Virus record (IMG/VR): IMGVR_UViG_2695420653_000006
Coordinates: 1 to 26,009 of that record
From: a virus
Taxonomy: Duplodnaviria; Heunggongvirae; Uroviricota; Caudoviricetes
Direction: 5' to 3' (one strand)
Length of the DNA stretch: 26,009 bases
The position numbers were made by a program, and so were the translations under genes. Numbering within the stretch: position 1 is the stretch's first letter; every line of letters starts with the position of its first letter. The notes under the pieces are model-generated. The model worked only from the letters and a program-made list of their open reading frames with translations. It made no database searches and had not been told where the DNA came from. Positions 2,291 to 25,001 of this stretch are shown piece after piece.

Positions 2291-2910
2291 GACTCGAAAG
2301 CGTAGCTAAATTTCATTCGCCAAAAAGCCCGATGATGAGTGACTCACCACGGGCCACGGCTTCTGACTCTCTTTCCGGTACTGATGTGATGGCTGCTATG
2401 GGGATGGCGCAATCACAAGCCGGATTCGGCATGGCTGCATTCTGTGGTAAGCACGAACTCAGCCAGAACGACAAACAAAAGGCTATCAACTATCTGATGC
2501 AATTTGCACACAAGGTATCGGGGAAATACCGTGGTGTGGCAAAGCTCGAAGGAAATACTAAGGCAAAGGTACTGCAAGTGCTCGCAACATTCGCTTATGC
2601 GGATTATTGCCGTAGTGCCGCGACGCCGGGCGCAAGATGCAGAGATTGCCACGGTACAGGCCGTGCGGTTGATATAGCAAAAACAGAGCAGTGGGGGAGA
2701 GTTGTCGAGAAAGAGTGCGGAAGATGCAAAGGCGTCGGCTATTCAAGAATGCCAGCAAGCGCCGCATATCGCGCTGTAACGATGCTAATCCCAAACCTTA
2801 CTCAACCCACCTGGTCACGCACTGTTAAGCCTCTGTATGACGCTCTGGTGGTGCAATGCCACAAAGAAGAGTCAATCGCAGACAACATTTTGAATGCGGT
2901 CACACGTTAG
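2287..2910 (+). CDS. Q: Late gene antiterminator Q
   Basis: 207-aa translation ([83 protein letters not shown]...CRDCHGTGR...CGRCKGVGY) matches lambda Q including the zinc-finger cysteines; followed by PR'. Confidence 0.9.
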
Positions 2911-2952
2911 CAGCATGATTGCCACGGATGGCAACATATTAACGGCATGATA

Positions 2953-2981
2953 TTGACTTTTTGAATAAAGTTGGGTAAATT
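2953..2981 (+). promoter_or_regulatory. Late promoter PR' with overlapping qut site
   Basis: -35 TTGACT (2953-2958), 17-bp spacer, -10 TAAATT (2976-2981), immediately downstream of Q; sequence context essentially as in lambda PR'. Confidence 0.75.
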
Positions 2982-2987
2982 TAACCC

Positions 2988-3182
2988 AACGATGGGTTAA
3001 TTCGCTCGTTGTGGTAGTGAGATAAAAAGAGGCGGCGCTTACTACCGATTCCGCCTAGTTGGTCACTTCGACGCATCTTCTGGAACTCCAACCATCGCAG
3101 GCTGAGAGGTCTGCAAAATGCAATCCCGAAACAGTTCGCAGGTAATAGTTAGAGCCTGCACAACGGTTTCGGGATTTTTTAT
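2988..3182 (+). ncRNA. 6S RNA (short constitutive PR' transcript ending at tR')
   Basis: About 194 nt from the predicted PR' start to the tR' U-tract; lambda-like sequence throughout. Transcript ends are inferred, not measured. Confidence 0.6.
3125..3182 (+). terminator. tR' intrinsic terminator
   Basis: Outer inverted repeat CCCGAAAC (3125-3132) / GTTTCGGG (3166-3173) with inner GCAGG/CCTGC stem, followed by ATTTTTTAT. Confidence 0.7.
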
Positions 3183-3550
3183 ATCTGCACAACAGGTAAG
3201 AGCATTAAAGAACTGGCAAAGAGCTTAACGGTCTGCGAAAGCATTTCTTAGTGGCACAACTGGCCGGTACAACTGAGTGCTCTTTCCGGTGTGGTGAATG
3301 CGCAGGCTGATGCGCGCAGGAGAGCTTCGGAAGAACAAGGTGCCTGTATACAAGCCGGAGATCAGCGCCGGCCACCACAGCCAAATCCACCCAGAGCAAA
3401 ACCGTTGTTCATCATTACCATTCCCTCAGTATTTTGGGCTACAACCCTCATCCCATTTTTTAAAGCGTACTTCTACCAAGAACCAGACCTAACCAACTCA
3501 TTGCTGACACTCTGTGGATACGGTTGTCTAGTGCGCTTTAAAAAAGAAAA

Positions 3551-5125: not shown

Positions 5126-5149
5126 GCCTCGCATTTGCGGGGCTTTTTT
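5126..5149 (+). terminator. Intrinsic terminator downstream of the lysis cassette
   Basis: GCCTCGC-ATTT-GCGGGGC stem-loop followed by TTTTTTAT. Confidence 0.55.
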
Positions 5150-5293
5150 ATATCTGAATTTCACAGCGCATCTCACGCGCATATTAACGAGAGCCTTTCA
5201 GTAAGCGAGCCTGAGAAATGCCGTTATAGGTGGCGACCTCTCTCGGGCGGCTTTTCTGTGAGACAGGCTCACTTTCTAAAAGGTAAAGACGCT

Positions 5294-5818
5294 ATGAATA
5301 GTCATTCAGTTATTCCAGCCTTCGACTTCCGAGAAATGGTGCAAGCCAAAAACGGAGAGGTCGTTACCACATCCAGAAAAATTGCCAAGTACTTCGGCAA
5401 GCGACACGGTGATGTTCTCAGGAAAATCGAGCAGGTTAAGGCTGATTGCTCGCGTGAGTTTAGCCAACGCAATTTTGCGTCGGCTGATTATATCGATGAA
5501 CAGGGCAAGGTTCGCCCGATGTACAGCCTGACGAAAGATGGCTGGATCATGGTTGTAATGGGGTTCACCGGGAAAGCTGCTGCAGCAATCAAGGAGAGCT
5601 ATATCGCAGCATTCAATTGGATGGCAGAGCAACTGAGCCGCCGCATGGCAATTGGCGAAGAAATGCAGCACCGCTACGCCATCAAAGAAACACGCTCAAA
5701 GCTGAAAGGTACGATCGGCAGTCGATTAATGAACGAACGGAAGAAAGAGAAGCGTGTCCTGGCTGTCGAGCATGAATACATCTTGCAGGTGACACAGCCT
5801 GAACTGCTGATTAATTGA
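5294..5818 (+). CDS. rha: Rha-family phage regulatory protein (P22 rha/orf201-like position)
   Basis: Translation from ATG 5294 (MNSHSVIPAFDFREMVQAKNGEVVTTSRKIAKYFGKRHGDVLRKIEQ...YSLTKDGWIMVVMGFTGKAAAAIKESYIAAFNWMAEQL) shows hallmarks of the phage pRha domain; lies between Rz and terminase as in P22. The upstream start at 5135 has no RBS and overlaps the terminator. Confidence 0.7.
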   Translation: MNSHSVIPAFDFREMVQAKNGEVVTTSRKIAKYFGKRHGDVLRKIEQVKADCSREFSQRNFASADYIDEQGKVRPMYSLTKDGWIMVVMGFTGKAAAAIKESYIAAFNWMAEQLSRRMAIGEEMQHRYAIKETRSKLKGTIGSRLMNERKKEKRVLAVEHEYILQVTQPELLIN

Positions 5819-20083: not shown

Positions 20084-20173
20084 CCTTTCAAACACCAGGA
20101 ACGTGCAAAAACCAAATATGTAGAACGCGAGGTTTATCGTATTCCTCTGCATAGGCGATACCTTTGCTGATTG

Positions 20174-20659
20174 TTATCTGATGTTACTGCTACTGTTGCA
20201 TGTGACTGTATTTCCAAACCCTGAATTGCAGTTTGTGTAAGTGTCAACTCGTGTTGGATAGGGTTGAGTTATAACAGGCTGTCTCGCTTTTTGCTCGATC
20301 GCTTGCATTGTGTTTACAGCCTGATAATTCAATAAAGCCTGCTGGAATGCTTGGCTTTGTGCTATTTGTTGTGCTTGTTCTTGGCTTTGTAATTGAACAT
20401 AAAGATTCTGAAGCTCAAGTCTTGCCTGTGCGTCACTTATCTTGCCTTCATCGACACCTTGCCCGAGCATCTTTGCAGCAAGGACATACAGTTTAGGTGT
20501 TGGTGCTGATGCCATGCGTGAGTCGTTCTTCACACTGGCATCAAGGCAATTAGCCATATCGCTAAGCTTTTGATAGCGTTGTTCGCAACTTGCTTGATAG
20601 TCACTTACTTTTGCGCATCCAACCAGCAGAAGCGGGATAATTAACAGTGATTTTTTCAT
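20174..20659 (-). CDS. Predicted lipoprotein (161 aa), candidate superinfection-exclusion/moron gene in the sieA position
   Basis: ATG at 20659 preceded by AAGGAGAG; signal peptide with lipobox MKKSLLIIPLLLVGC; Q-rich helical middle; C-terminal Cys pair (TNCNSGFGNTVTC). The upstream in-frame start at 20695 has no RBS. No family recognised. Confidence 0.65.
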   Translation of the reverse strand: MKKSLLIIPLLLVGCAKVSDYQASCEQRYQKLSDMANCLDASVKNDSRMASAPTPKLYVLAAKMLGQGVDEGKISDAQARLELQNLYVQLQSQEQAQQIAQSQAFQQALLNYQAVNTMQAIEQKARQPVITQPYPTRVDTYTNCNSGFGNTVTCNSSSNIR

Positions 20660-20729
20660 ATGGTTAACTCTCCTTAGTTTTTCACAGGATATCATGAAGG
20701 CAATGCCATTTTAGCCGGAAGCTAGATTT

Positions 20730-20999
20730 CTATGTTTCCTTTTTATTATTGCTATACATGGTCTTAAGCGTTTCAAAAACCATTTTCTTAACCATATCAG
20801 ATTGTTGTTCTGCCATACGCTCTGCATCGTCAATGTAAACTGATACAGAGCTTTGTTTAGCCAATGATTCTTCAATCGCTGCAATTATCTCTGAGTTCAG
20901 CGACCTGTTATTCATCTTCGCACGCTGTTTAATTTTCGCGTGAAGTTCATGCGGAAGTCTCAAGTGAAACTGCGCCTCGTCGTATTTGCTGTACATCAT
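20730..20999 (-). CDS. mnt: Mnt-like ribbon-helix-helix repressor (Arc/MetJ superfamily)
   Basis: Translation from Met at 20999 (MMYSKYDEAQFHLRLPHELHAKIKQRAKMNNRSLNSEIIAAIEESLAKQSSVSVYIDDAERMAEQQSDMVKKMVFETLKTMY...) aligns with P22 Mnt (…NGRSMNSELLQIVQDAL…DAERLADEQSELVKKMVFDTLK…) from memory; GAGG SD upstream. Confidence 0.8.
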   Translation of the reverse strand: MMYSKYDEAQFHLRLPHELHAKIKQRAKMNNRSLNSEIIAAIEESLAKQSSVSVYIDDAERMAEQQSDMVKKMVFETLKTMYSNNKKET

Positions 21000-21127
21000 T
21001 GATGCCTCACCAGTTGGGTGGAATGGCATCGTAACCTACTGGATAAATACTCAATAGTACCATTTCGGTATGCAATCACATCATGGTTGCATCATATCAT
21101 TCGTCTGGAGCAATGAAATGTCAGATA

Positions 21128-21628
21128 TCACCTACTCAACAGATGGTCAGCAACCATGTTTGCTGCCTTATAAGCTATAGCAGCTTCATCAATGGTGTTG
21201 AATCTCCCAAGGGTTATGTTTTTACCTGAGACATTTATCTGAGCTTGCCATTGATTTCTGGCTTGACAGAAAGTTACCCCCTTGATTCCAGCATTGCTAT
21301 TTCGAGGTCCGACATTTAATGCATTTACGACTCTGCTGACATCCCTAAGGTTTGAGATTGCGTTATTTCTTCTGTTTCTATCAATGTGGTCAATCTCTTG
21401 TTTTGGCCATTCGCCATATACATACAGCCAGGCAAGTCTATGTGCAAAATATCTTACGCCATCAATATTAATTGCGTTATATCCATAAGAAATTGTGCCA
21501 GCAACTTTCCCAACAGCACCTCTGGCGCTTAATTTCTTTTTCCAAGTGAAAATTCCTGTTTCTTTATTGTAATCGAGAACCTCCATAAGGCGCTCCCGAG
21601 TTACTACCTCGTGACGTCTCTTACTCAT
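21128..21628 (-). CDS. HNH endonuclease with AP2-type DNA-binding domain (free-standing homing-endonuclease-like)
   Basis: Translation from ATG 21628 (SD GGAG): HNH motif region [18 protein letters not shown] followed by an AP2-like domain ([40 protein letters not shown]); AT-rich codon usage. Confidence 0.75.
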
Positions 21629-21641
21629 TATTTTCTCCGGA

Positions 21642-23486
21642 ATGTTTATTATGCCAGAACAATTATACAACGTTGTTGTTTCACAACCAAGTCAGTTATT
21701 TACTTTAGCTCGCTCGTTTAAAGCAAATGCCAATGGCAAAATTTATATCGGTAAAATTGACACTGACCCTGTAAATCCTGAAAACCAGATTCAGGTTTAT
21801 GTGGAAAACGAAGACGGCTCTCATGTTCCTGTATCGCAACCAATCATCATTAATGCTGCTGGTTACCCTGTATATAACGGACAGATTGCCAAGTTCGTAA
21901 CTGTGCAAGGCCATTCTATGGCTGTTTATGATGCATATGGTGCGCAGCAGTTCTATTTTCCGAATGTGTTAAAATATGACCCAGATCAGGCATATTATCG
22001 TGCTGAAAAAGACATTAAAAGATCTGGCGCTATCGAAACAAAAATACAAGACGCTATTAATTCATCCGTCTCAGGTCAGACGGTGTTAACAATTAATGAA
22101 GATGAGGTTGTTGATTCTATTAACAATGATTATGGTGTGGAAATCGATGCTAGAAGGGGAAGAGTTTTTAATAGAGATGGTGTCCAGTTATCAACATACA
22201 CAAATCCGAGGAATAGATTTGTTATAGGTCAAGAGTATTTAAATTATGTTACAAATAAACTTATTAACGGTGACGGAGTAACTTCAGATAAAAAAACATA
22301 TATTTTATGGTCTGGAGACTCCACTATAGTTGGTGTAAACTCTGAGTCATGGCCTCCAGCCACTATCGCTGATTTTTATGCAAAAAGGTATGGAATTATT
22401 GATGTAAAAAATACATCGTTAGGTCATTCAGGTAAAACTCTATACGAATGGGGTAATTGGTATATTGATCAGGAATGGTCTGTTTTTTCTGCTGCTGATT
22501 TGATTGTTTTACGATGGGGAATTAACGATCCATATTATGGTTATACATTGGATCAAGTAAAAGACGCATTAGATAGAGGTCTTTCCAAGTTACGAAATAA
22601 CAAATCAGTTTCCCAGCAATCAATTATTATCATGTCCCCAAACTCAACATCAGACACACCAAACGGACGTGATGAAAAATGGTATGAACAGTTAACAGCC
22701 GTGCTTAGAGCTAAAGCTAAAAAATATAAGTGCATGTTTTTTGACACTTACGGTATGTGGCAGGATTCCAGAGGCGCAGCAGGTAACTGGCTTGATAATC
22801 CATATGGGGATGGTCGCGGAATTCATCCAAATTATGTTTTTAGCGCCCAAATTCACCATGAGTTACTTGATTACATATATGGCCCATGCAAAGTAGTAAA
22901 TGGAAGTTCTAATTTATTTTCTAACAATGGTTCATCTTTGCAATTTGTTGGTAGTTCATATCCACCAAATACGTTTCATATGGGGACTTCATGGTGGAGA
23001 ACAAATCCTGATGATTCTTCTTGGCCTCTTGATGGTGTTATTCAGGTCGATAGATTTGTTGATGGAGTAGTGTTGCAAAAATTATATGGATATATATCTG
23101 AAAGTAGCAGAGTGTGTTTTACTCGCATAGGAAGGATAAGTGAGAACACATGGTCACAGTGGCGTGGTAAGCAATATGAAATATCTGGCCTGTTACAAAA
23201 TGGATGGGTTATAGGAGAATCAAGGAAAGGGACATACCAAAAATCTCTGGATGGTATTATAAATATAAATTGCGTTTTAACTGGAGGGGCAACTTCTGTT
23301 GGAACGGTTATAATGAATCTTCCTTCAGGGTTCAGGCCAGAAAAAGATATATCTTATATACCTTGTGGAACAAACAATGCTATAGCACTGATCAATATTT
23401 CGGCTAACGGAAATGTTACAATTCAATCATTTCCGTCAGGTTCTGTTCTTACTATAGCAACATCATTCCCATCAATGGTTGATTGA
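21642..23486 (+). CDS. Tailspike protein: P22-type head-binding N-domain fused to an SGNH/GDSL-hydrolase (esterase) receptor-binding domain
   Basis: Residues about 20-115 match the conserved P22 gp9 head-binding domain ([38 protein letters not shown]...[15 protein letters not shown]...NVLKYDPDQ). Downstream, SGNH blocks in canonical order: GDS ([11 protein letters not shown], Ser227 codon near 22320), G block (LGHSG), GxND (LRWGINDP), DxxH (DGRGIHPN). Strongly AT-rich after the N-domain. Confidence 0.85.
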
Positions 23487-23607: not shown

Positions 23608-24765
23608 TCACTCCACCTTTTCATCAAGCCAGTCCGCCCACCACTGCATCATTTCTCTGCGCTTATCGAGATACTGAGCATGGTTGTAAATACCGCGCAC
23701 AGATCCACCGTTGGCATGTGCAAGTTGCACTTCAATAGCGTCAGCAGGCCATTCGTGCTCGTTCATAATCGTGCTGAATTCATGCCTGAATCCGTGACCG
23801 CTTTCCAGACCCTCATAGCCGATTTGTTTGATCACAAGCAATACCGCGTTCTCGCAGATTGGCTTCTTCTTATCGTTACGCCCGGCAAAAACAAACTCTG
23901 ATACTGGTTTGGTGATGGAGCTTAACGTAGTGAGAAGTTCAACCACCTGGTCTGACATCGGGACCACATGAATTTTGCGTCCCTTCATCACACTGGCGTC
24001 GATGGTGATAATCCTGTTTTCAAAATCGACGTTCTTCCATTGCATGGAACGAAGCTCTTTTGTTCTGAGGGCTGTGTAGCGTAAAACTTTGGTCGCAATG
24101 AGCGATACGATACTTCCTGAAAATGTTGCCAGTGCTTTGTTGAATGCAGGGATCTGGTCTGCAGGCAGAAACGGGAAGTTTTTCTTGCGGTATCCCTTCA
24201 TTGCGTCAGCAAGGTCAGGTGCCGGGTTATATTTAGCTCTGCCGGTGACAATAGCGTAACGGAAAACCTCGCCGCATCTTCTGCGTGCTTTGTTGGCTCG
24301 CTCCATTGCACCGCGATCTTCGAATCTGCGGATTACTTCCAGCAGTTGCATCGGCTCAATATCCTGAATCTCAAGACCGCCGATGATGGGTAAAATGTCG
24401 TCATCAAACATTTTGGCAAGTTCAGTCGCATATCCTACTGACCAGACTTGCTTCTTGTGCTCGTACCATTCCTTGTAAATGGCGCTAAAGGAATTGTTGT
24501 TAGACGAAGCCTTTTTCGCTTTTACCGGATCGATGCCAACCGAGATGTCTTTCCTCGCGGTCCATGCTTTATCTCTTGCCTCCTGCAAAGTCATTAGCGG
24601 ATATTTTCCTACGGTCAGGATTTTCTCCTTACCGTCAATCTTGTAGCGAAGCTGCCATACCTTTTTCCCGGATACAGGGACATAAAGGTACAGGCCATTA
24701 CCATCGAGAAGGCGGTATGGTTTTTCTTTCGGCTTTGCTGCTTCAATCTGCTTAACGGTGAGCAT
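23608..24765 (-). CDS. intS: Tyrosine integrase, P4-family, argW-targeting type (IntS-like)
   Basis: 385 aa from ATG 24765 (MLTVKQIEAAKPKEKPYRLLDGNGLYLYV... arm-binding N-domain); catalytic R…HxxR…Y signature (…RTKELRS…HGFRHEF…RGIYNHAQY); adjacent to the 3' end of argW. ORF track starts at an upstream GTG (24801) that I consider less likely. Confidence 0.88.
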   Translation of the reverse strand: MLTVKQIEAAKPKEKPYRLLDGNGLYLYVPVSGKKVWQLRYKIDGKEKILTVGKYPLMTLQEARDKAWTARKDISVGIDPVKAKKASSNNNSFSAIYKEWYEHKKQVWSVGYATELAKMFDDDILPIIGGLEIQDIEPMQLLEVIRRFEDRGAMERANKARRRCGEVFRYAIVTGRAKYNPAPDLADAMKGYRKKNFPFLPADQIPAFNKALATFSGSIVSLIATKVLRYTALRTKELRSMQWKNVDFENRIITIDASVMKGRKIHVVPMSDQVVELLTTLSSITKPVSEFVFAGRNDKKKPICENAVLLVIKQIGYEGLESGHGFRHEFSTIMNEHEWPADAIEVQLAHANGGSVRGIYNHAQYLDKRREMMQWWADWLDEKVE

Positions 24766-24926
24766 GGGTAAAAATCCGGTGGGTAAAATTATTTTATCCA
24801 CTTTTTACCCGTCATGGAGTGCGGCTGTCAACGATCTGAAGCGAACCATGACGAACTGTGAATCTACGGAAGGCTTGATATTCAGGGGATTTTGCGGACT
24901 AGCACGGATGGTAGCGAACTGATAAA

Positions 24927-25001
24927 TGGTGTCCCCTGCAGGAATCGAACCTGCAATTAGCCCTTAGGAGGGGCTCGTTATATCCATTTAACTAAGAGGA
25001 C
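24927..25001 (-). tRNA. argW: tRNA-Arg (anticodon CCU)
   Basis: Minus-strand sequence GTCCTCTTAGTTAAATGGATATAACGAGCCCCTCCTAAGGGCTAATTGCAGGTTCGATTCCTGCAGGGGACACCA folds as a cloverleaf: 7-bp acceptor stem, T-loop GGTTCGATTCC, anticodon loop CCUCCUAAG with CCU at 34-36, encoded CCA. Confidence 0.92.

Follow-up and report, generated by a model that had tools for sequence, protein, structure and literature searches.

To our knowledge, the only job of Mnt, a textbook repressor, is to silence an antirepressor, and an mnt gene found apart from arc and ant raises the question of what its product represses. We analysed such a gene in a stretch of 26,009 nucleotides (hereafter the window), which makes up the right half of a P22-like (Lederbergvirus-type) prophage. 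In order, the window carries ninG, a phosphatase gene, a Q-type antiterminator gene, lysis genes and a Rha-family gene, and then encodes a Sf6-type small terminase, a large terminase, P22-type portal and coat proteins and homologues of gp7, gp20 and gp16. After the gp16 homologue, a lipoprotein-like gene, mnt and an HNH gene lie on the minus strand, followed by the tailspike gene on the plus strand. The open reading frame map and the Pfam matches of the neighbours thus place mnt in the ‘ant moron’ slot, flanked by the gene-16 homologue and the tailspike gene and oriented against the late operon; P22 immI has the same slot and orientation. The prophage ends with the tailspike gene, an integrase gene (23608–24801, minus strand), tRNA-Arg(CCU) (24927–25001) and the host gene yfdC. 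No O-antigen-modifying gene lies between the tailspike gene and int in the window; Sf101 and E. coli EC06 have an acyltransferase gene there. The features around mnt are as follows (classes II and III are defined below).

20174–20659, minus strand: lipoprotein-like gene (MKKSLLIIPLLLVGC...), an open reading frame in PHROG 6067, function unknown.
20730–20996, minus strand: mnt coding sequence, 88 amino acids, stop codon at 20730–20732, placed by Pfam and PDB matches, relatives and the RefSeq length.
21005–21011, minus strand: Shine-Dalgarno sequence GGTGAGG of mnt, read from the sequence, with GAGG kept in class II and III relatives.
21001–21030, no strand assigned: inverted repeat GATGCC-N18-GGCATC, with the 5′ arm in the mnt sense at 21030–21025 and the 3′ arm at 21006–21001.
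21028–21033, minus strand: putative Pmnt −10 TACGAT, aligned with the annotated P22 Pmnt −10 TATCAT.
21049–21054, minus strand: putative Pmnt −35 TTGAGT, aligned with P22 TTGAGA, with ATTG invariant.
21056–21072, no strand assigned: candidate Mnt operator CATACCGAAATGGTACT (CATACC-GAAAT-GGTACT, core TACC-N5-GGTA), chosen by the alignment columns of P22 O_mnt, uniqueness and conservation.
21119–21133, plus strand: relic of the original tailspike start, ATGTCAGATATCACC (MSDIT), identical to the start in uninterrupted relatives.
21128–21628, minus strand: free-standing homing-endonuclease-like gene with HNH_3 and AP2 domains (Pfam; PHROG 99), its reading frame open to 21670.
21642–23486, plus strand: tailspike gene with an N-terminal Head_binding domain and a GDSL esterase domain (Pfam), its start perhaps at 21651 by homology with Kapi1.

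The product of 20730–20996 (minus strand) is predicted to be a tetramer-forming ribbon-helix-helix protein of the Mnt family. When translation is begun at 20999, its N-terminal, Arc-like ribbon-helix-helix domain matches the Pfam Arc family (PF03869, E = 2.8e-15), and it has the C-terminal Mnt tetramerisation helix (Repressor_Mnt, PF11423, E = 4.1e-12, residues 58–82). It also matches the PDB entries 1mnt (E = 1.5e-19, residues 7–79 against 3–75) and 1qey, the Mnt tetramerisation domain (E = 1.2e-6). Because of these matches, the initial annotation was correct in describing a likeness to Mnt over the whole length, the C-terminal helix included. P22 Mnt has the same domain order, with a ribbon-helix-helix domain at the N-terminus and a tetramerisation helix at the C-terminus. 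P22 Arc shares the fold, and the window protein matches the Arc family in Pfam, but Arc is a dimer of 53 residues without the Mnt C-terminal helix that the window protein has. The window protein is 49% identical to P22 Mnt, and its β-strand residues aligned to Arg2, His6, Asn8 and Arg10, which we take to be the DNA-contact residues of P22 Mnt, are Tyr, Gln, His and Arg, so that three of the four differ (R2Y, H6Q, N8H). The roles of residues 2, 6, 8 and 10 were reportedly worked out by Knight and Sauer. As the recognition residues differ from those of P22, the window encodes a Mnt homologue with a different predicted specificity.

The mnt reading frame is open over 20730–21029 (minus strand), and translation most likely begins with the ATG at 20996, giving 88 residues, because nearly all relatives have a single ATG at this position (...CATCAAGGATG; in a wider reading CAAGGATG), one relative (L091) has a stop codon within the upstream extension of the frame, and the RefSeq annotation gives a product of 88 residues. 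The extra in-frame ATG at 20997–20999 arises from a G-to-T change (CAAGGATG to CAATGATG) that creates a tandem ATGATG and is found in the window and in only two or a few other loci. Many RefSeq phage records (e.g. that of Sf101 gp14, L001/L010) and PHROG 795 wrongly label Mnt homologues ‘partition protein ATPase’, and the IME10 record leaves the mnt gene unannotated; genes so annotated are properly named Mnt-like repressors.

The promoter and operator of the window were assigned by alignment with P22, where one base separates the Pmnt −35 from the annotated 17-bp O_mnt (AGGTCCACCGTGGACCT) on its upstream side. The candidate operator shares the alignment columns of P22 O_mnt, is followed by ATTGAGT and lies ∼60 bp upstream of mnt. 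The window and P22 have the same −10/−35 layout, with a 17-bp dyad one base upstream of the −35, and in the sequence of the window a dyad-symmetric element adjoins the Pmnt −35, as the Mnt family predicts. In an alignment of 13 diverse upstream regions, TA..AT of the −10 is invariant, and at loci with an unrelated left flank the homology begins exactly at the distal edge of the operator. The initial annotation had proposed a search for operator copies elsewhere. Run within the window, this search found the TACC-N5-GGTA core once (0.12 copies expected by chance; 0.05 as a second pattern figure), with no second copy near the lipoprotein, HNH or Rha genes, and in the complete Sf101 genome the core is likewise present once, in the same place. 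The likely target of Mnt is the candidate operator at 21056–21072 rather than the inverted repeat at 21001–21030.

The −35 and −10 of Pmnt are separated by 15 bp in the E. coli/Sf101 subtype, which is the most abundant and carries a 2-bp deletion, and by 17 bp in relatives from Salmonella (VSe13), Serratia, Buttiauxella and Citrobacter; Pmnt of the E. coli subtype should therefore be weak. A leftward promoter match further upstream (CTGACA-17-AATGAT, 21124–21096) was considered as another mnt promoter and set aside as a chance match, because its conservation does not extend to VSe13 or phage L; if real, it would place the GATGCC/GGCATC repeat inside the RNA. Next to the distal operator arm lies an imperfect inverted repeat, ATGCAATCA/TGGTTGCAT (21070–21092), at a site that corresponds to a GC-rich hairpin in phage L and VSe13, and it may represent the remains of the ant terminator ahead of the tailspike gene.

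Comparison of the Mnt β-strand with the operator across relatives separated three specificity classes.

Class I: strand PHFNFRMP, operator GGTCCAC-N-GTGGACC, always with arc-ant (P22, epsilon34 and a Pluralibacter prophage).
Class II: strand PQFNLRLP, operator AGACCAC-N-GTGGTCT, orphan (L/ST64T, Gally, and Symbiopectobacterium and Providencia prophages).
Class III: strand AQFHLRLP, operator RTACC-N5-GGTAC, orphan (the window, Sf101, IME10, VSe13 and further prophages of Escherichia, Buttiauxella, Serratia and Citrobacter).

The operator co-varies with the β-strand motif (PHFNFRMP with GGTCCAC, PQFNLRLP with AGACCAC, AQFHLRLP with RTACC). The arginine at the position of P22 Arg10 and the CC...GG core of the operator are invariant across all classes, and the other contact positions change together with the half-site bases. 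The half-site of the window is RTACC(NW), against GGTCCAC in P22, and the class II strand has Q, N and R in common with Arc. CUS-3 has the class I strand and ant, with the P22-type operator absent, and the class II prophages of Symbiopectobacterium and Providencia have imperfect operator arms. Among 17 operator variants of class III, the arms TACC and GGTAC are nearly invariant, and the variable sites are positions 7 and 11 in the spacer and, on the outside, positions 1, 2 and 17; in operators of the phage L type the arms GACCAC/GTGGTC are fixed and the centre base takes all four values. The dyad symmetry of class III is short, with 4–5 bp in each arm where P22 and phage L have 8. The three matched protein and operator classes form a natural specificity series for DNA recognition by a β-sheet.

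Within class III, Sf101 and IME10 (Mnt 89% identical to that of the window) and VSe13 (65%) share the operator and promoter of the window; unlike the window, none of the three has the HNH insertion, and Sf101 retains the ancestral junction of mnt and tailspike gene. In their records the protein is called ‘partition protein ATPase’ or is unannotated. Phages ST64T, ST104 and L (and Gally) resemble the window in having mnt without arc/ant, divergent from the tailspike gene (as described in PMC2629481 and PMC8022706), with the same GATGCC/GGCATC repeat and Pmnt layout. They differ from it in the PQFNLRLP strand and in an operator that is a perfect AGACCAC-N-GTGGTCT palindrome, and their Mnt is ∼50–58% identical to that of the window. 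We also scanned IMG/VR for CATACCNAAANGGTAC: among the 120 matches listed, 80 lie outside mnt loci, as chance predicts for 14 specified bases, and arc/ant lies beside none of the 120. Four unrelated contigs (L338, L345, L383 and L399) each have two CATACCNAAANGGTAC copies exactly 515 bp apart, with no Mnt, Arc or Ant homologue near these pairs, which are probably a repeated gene segment.

Searches with tblastn, using Arc and Ant of P22, Kapi1 and CUS-3 as queries, found no homologue of either in the 26-kb window, which bears out the description of a Mnt-type repressor without local Arc or Ant. As the early region of the prophage lies outside the window, complete relatives were also searched. 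In the complete Sf101 genome (38.7 kb), neither annotation nor tblastn revealed Arc or Ant anywhere, so that in this close relative, whose Mnt is 89% identical, the arc/ant pair that the initial annotation had allowed for elsewhere in the prophage is absent. In contrast with P22 immI, the 26-kb window holds no arc, ant, sar or functional-looking Pant, and the strong rightward Pant of the immI type, overlapped by the Mnt operator, is absent from it. The hexamers aligned to P22 Pant read GAATGG and TAAATA, with the same decay in class II, and a consensus scan gave no match to a rightward (plus-strand) promoter; the Mnt of the window therefore represses no Pant-like promoter. A Pant-like rightward promoter was also rejected on the class II and III alignments, in which every aligned −10 is missing either the A of position 2 or the T of position 6. 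The Rha-family protein (5135–5818, plus strand; Phage_pRha, E = 3e-28), encoded between the lysis and terminase genes, has weaker matches to PHROG families labelled anti-repressor, and no site like a Mnt operator lies near its gene.

The orphan state is the norm for the Mnt lineage of the window. Arc/ant was found in 0 of ∼165 locus entries of class III, 0 of 84 of class II and 4 of 4 of class I, counts that contain duplicate contigs between searches and that sample class I thinly (4 loci). None of the 80 IMG/VR contigs with an 88–99% identical Mnt carries arc/ant, and ∼74 of these 80 have a tailspike head-binding domain ∼120 bp upstream in divergent orientation. The segment that spans the lipoprotein gene, mnt and its control region (20100–21132) is 95–99% identical in 356 of 5426 complete E. 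coli genomes, where it runs directly into the tailspike gene. The rarity of orphan mnt that the initial annotation had implied does not hold up: PMC2629481 and PMC8022706 document orphan mnt for ST64T, ST104, Para1 and phage L, and the arrangement is already described by Villafane et al. and Zaworski et al. The window thus carries an ordinary orphan Mnt of P22-like phages, in a distinct specificity class and a common arrangement, and shows nothing unusual apart from the adjacent homing-endonuclease insertion.

The orphan Mnt is under purifying selection. Of 257 mnt reading frames, 254 are intact, with a median pairwise dN/dS of 0.12 and synonymous sites saturated between genera. At 74 loci no other gene accompanies mnt in the interval from the gp16 homologue (18–90 bp to the gp16 end) to the tailspike gene, and there every reading frame is intact at 86 codons, with a median dN/dS of 0.09 (473 pairs); selection is thus evident (dN/dS ∼0.1) even where mnt is the sole gene in the slot. 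Large and old P22-like lineages keep an intact Mnt and a matching operator in the absence of the antirepressor, and this conservation implies a second, so far undescribed role of Mnt. The phage L genome paper leaves the role of orphan Mnt open.

The initial annotation named the lipoprotein gene, the HNH gene and read-through into the tailspike gene as candidate targets. Homology between the window and uninterrupted relatives stops at 21132–21133, just after ATGTCAGATATCACC (tailspike codons 1–5), and resumes ∼49 nt into the tailspike gene; these boundaries mark the HNH gene as a later insertion into tailspike codon 6, after codon 5. The relic start now opens a relic frame of 20 codons (21119–21181), and the tailspike protein begins MFIMPEQLY... 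where the relatives have MSDITA.... At exactly this point, other contigs (L041, L050, L066 and L093) carry a second HNH gene that shares only 42% identity, and the HNH cassette of the window is 98.7% identical to that of Kapi1, which there follows a complete mnt-arc-ant region. As an insertion at the tailspike start that is also found behind the mnt-arc-ant region of Kapi1, and present in 11 locus entries only, the HNH gene is not a conserved target of Mnt. Among E. coli genomes, only EC06 has the same HNH arrangement, in a degraded prophage remnant. The lipoprotein gene is absent from at least 74 loci, and from Sf101; it pairs with mnt in about half of the closest relatives. Neither a promoter nor a terminator was matched between mnt and the lipoprotein gene, and the two are probably co-transcribed. 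Of the three proposed targets, the lipoprotein and HNH genes fall away, since they are missing in many loci and have no operator copy, and only tailspike read-through agrees with the comparison of relatives.

Just two neighbours of the Mnt-operator pair are invariant, Pmnt itself and the 5′ end of the tailspike gene. Since the lipoprotein and HNH genes are each missing from many loci, we favour autoregulation together with a gate on tailspike transcription, and give a probability of roughly 0.5 to the reading that the window encodes a functional orphan Mnt, with a single operator at 21056–21072, that would regulate itself and act as a gate or insulator on transcription into the tailspike gene. 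The protein would belong to an old P22-like lineage that carries mnt without arc, ant or Pant. Leftward transcription of mnt would start from the Pmnt homologue (TTGAGT-15-TACGAT, 21054–21028), and Mnt would bind the one dyad-symmetric operator that abuts the −35, as P22 O_mnt does. The change of half-site from GGTCCAC to RTACCNW would match that of the recognition residues from Arg2/His6/Asn8/Arg10 to Tyr/Gln/His/Arg. With Pant decayed (its −10 equivalent TAAATA, no −35), bound Mnt would be left with its own promoter, regulated from a site centred ∼43–45 bp upstream of the inferred transcription start, and with RNA polymerase that crosses the junction of the ejection genes and the tailspike gene. 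The read-through affected would run rightward from the late operon and, in the window, also leftward from the inserted HNH gene; as its conserved output, Mnt would gate transcription that enters the tailspike gene, or insulate the gene from it. PMC2629481 and PMC8022706 describe tailspike expression by late-operon read-through across the mnt junction, and in the former a role of the ant moron, and of Mnt and Arc, in late read-through into the tailspike gene is already suspected. Against this reading stand the short arms of the class III operator, the 15-bp spacer of the E. coli subtype, which should weaken Pmnt, and the ability that antiterminated late RNA polymerase may have to pass a bound repressor. 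It is conceivable, if doubtful, that the orphan Mnt-operator pair was itself selected as a self-contained roadblock at the last junction of the late operon, acting through a promoter-less operator to set the dosage of tailspike in cis or on superinfecting relatives, and that classes II and III kept it after the loss of arc/ant.

Other explanations place the benefit of Mnt elsewhere. Mnt could be kept only as the autoregulated driver of an operon expressed in the lysogen, with a downstream moron as payload, here the lipoprotein gene. The missing terminator and promoter matches between the two genes, the recurrence of the pair in about half of the closest relatives, and the order in P22, where orf59a follows mnt before the terminator, are all consistent with such an operon, but the 74 solo-mnt loci, of which Sf101 is one, have kept mnt intact at a dN/dS of 0.09, and this makes the explanation improbable. 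Antirepressors act across prophages. An orphan Mnt could serve immunity in trans, silencing in superinfecting relatives a Pant/ant with a matching operator, or the tailspike junction, and shielding the lysogen from antirepressor-mediated induction; purifying selection without a payload in cis would fit, as would the cross-prophage action of antirepressors (Lemire et al. 2011, cited in PMC12922286). We consider this improbable too, and a little more so, since a class II or III Mnt or operator stands beside arc/ant in none of ∼250 locus entries, a sample weighted toward close relatives, and in none of the 120 operator-pattern matches listed. That mnt is a decaying, functionless remnant of the immI region, a possibility raised for phage L (PMC8022706), would agree with the loss of Pant and with one Citrobacter copy that has a premature stop and a mutated operator arm; 254 intact reading frames of 257, a dN/dS of ∼0.1 with synonymous saturation between genera, and operator arms and promoter hexamers kept while the flanks were replaced make it very unlikely. 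The Citrobacter sp. locus (L095, ∼2900–3240) has the mnt stop at codon 5, the proximal operator arm changed from GGTA to AGTA and a remote Ant-like fragment downstream of mnt, and may be an example of joint decay of mnt and operator.

Two further explanations turn on the GATGCC/GGCATC repeat, which the initial annotation had read as an autoregulatory site or a hairpin that sequesters the Shine-Dalgarno sequence. The repeat is real, with exact 6-nt arms (21001–21006 and 21025–21030) 18 nt apart that flank the Shine-Dalgarno sequence, yet it is not by itself beyond chance: it is one of 13 inverted pairs of six to twelve nt in a 231-bp stretch, and the region folded with z-scores of −2.3 and −0.7 in two different frames, 46 of 200 shuffles folding equally well in the latter. 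Class II and III relatives keep the arms around an interior that differs, 88.5% of cells are paired, and a few wobble or double changes occur. The covariation score was reached by 8 of 500 shuffles, within the stated false-positive range of the tool, and disruptive arm variants (e.g. GATGCA, GATACC and GACATC) occur alongside wobble-preserving ones. The 5′ arm in the mnt sense consists of the last 3 nt of the conserved TAnnAT Pmnt −10 and the following GCC, and because it overlaps the −10 and discriminator it should lie outside the Pmnt transcript. Control of mnt translation by a leader hairpin that hides the Shine-Dalgarno sequence draws on the position and conservation of the arms, on a minimum free energy structure that pairs both, and on read-through transcripts from the upstream HNH gene, which has the same orientation and in the window could give RNA with both arms. 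We judge it unlikely, given a Pmnt transcript that should start downstream of the 5′ arm, most relatives without anything transcribed toward mnt from upstream, an ordinary folding energy, the covariation result and the disruptive variants. That the repeat is itself the Mnt operator is highly improbable: it has conserved dyad symmetry near the gene start, but its arm centres are 24 bp apart, against the compact 17-bp dyad of P22, the arms, which do not resemble Mnt half-sites, are identical in classes II and III though the recognition residues differ, and a far better candidate occupies the place that corresponds to P22 O_mnt. Constraints on the promoter and ribosome-binding site, or shared ancestry, probably produced the repeat as a by-product; it may still have a role in read-through transcripts, such as those from the HNH gene in the window.

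Kapi1 encodes a different, divergent type of Mnt-like protein (strand PQINIRIS), with arc-ant present; the Kapi1 transcriptome paper deals with this other type and gives no HNH data. Upstream of its gene (L004, ∼2278–2340) lies a long imperfect palindrome, GATGCGCAAAG...CTTTGGTGCATC, which is probably the operator of the Kapi1 protein and whose outer GATGC/GCATC echoes the repeat arms of the window.
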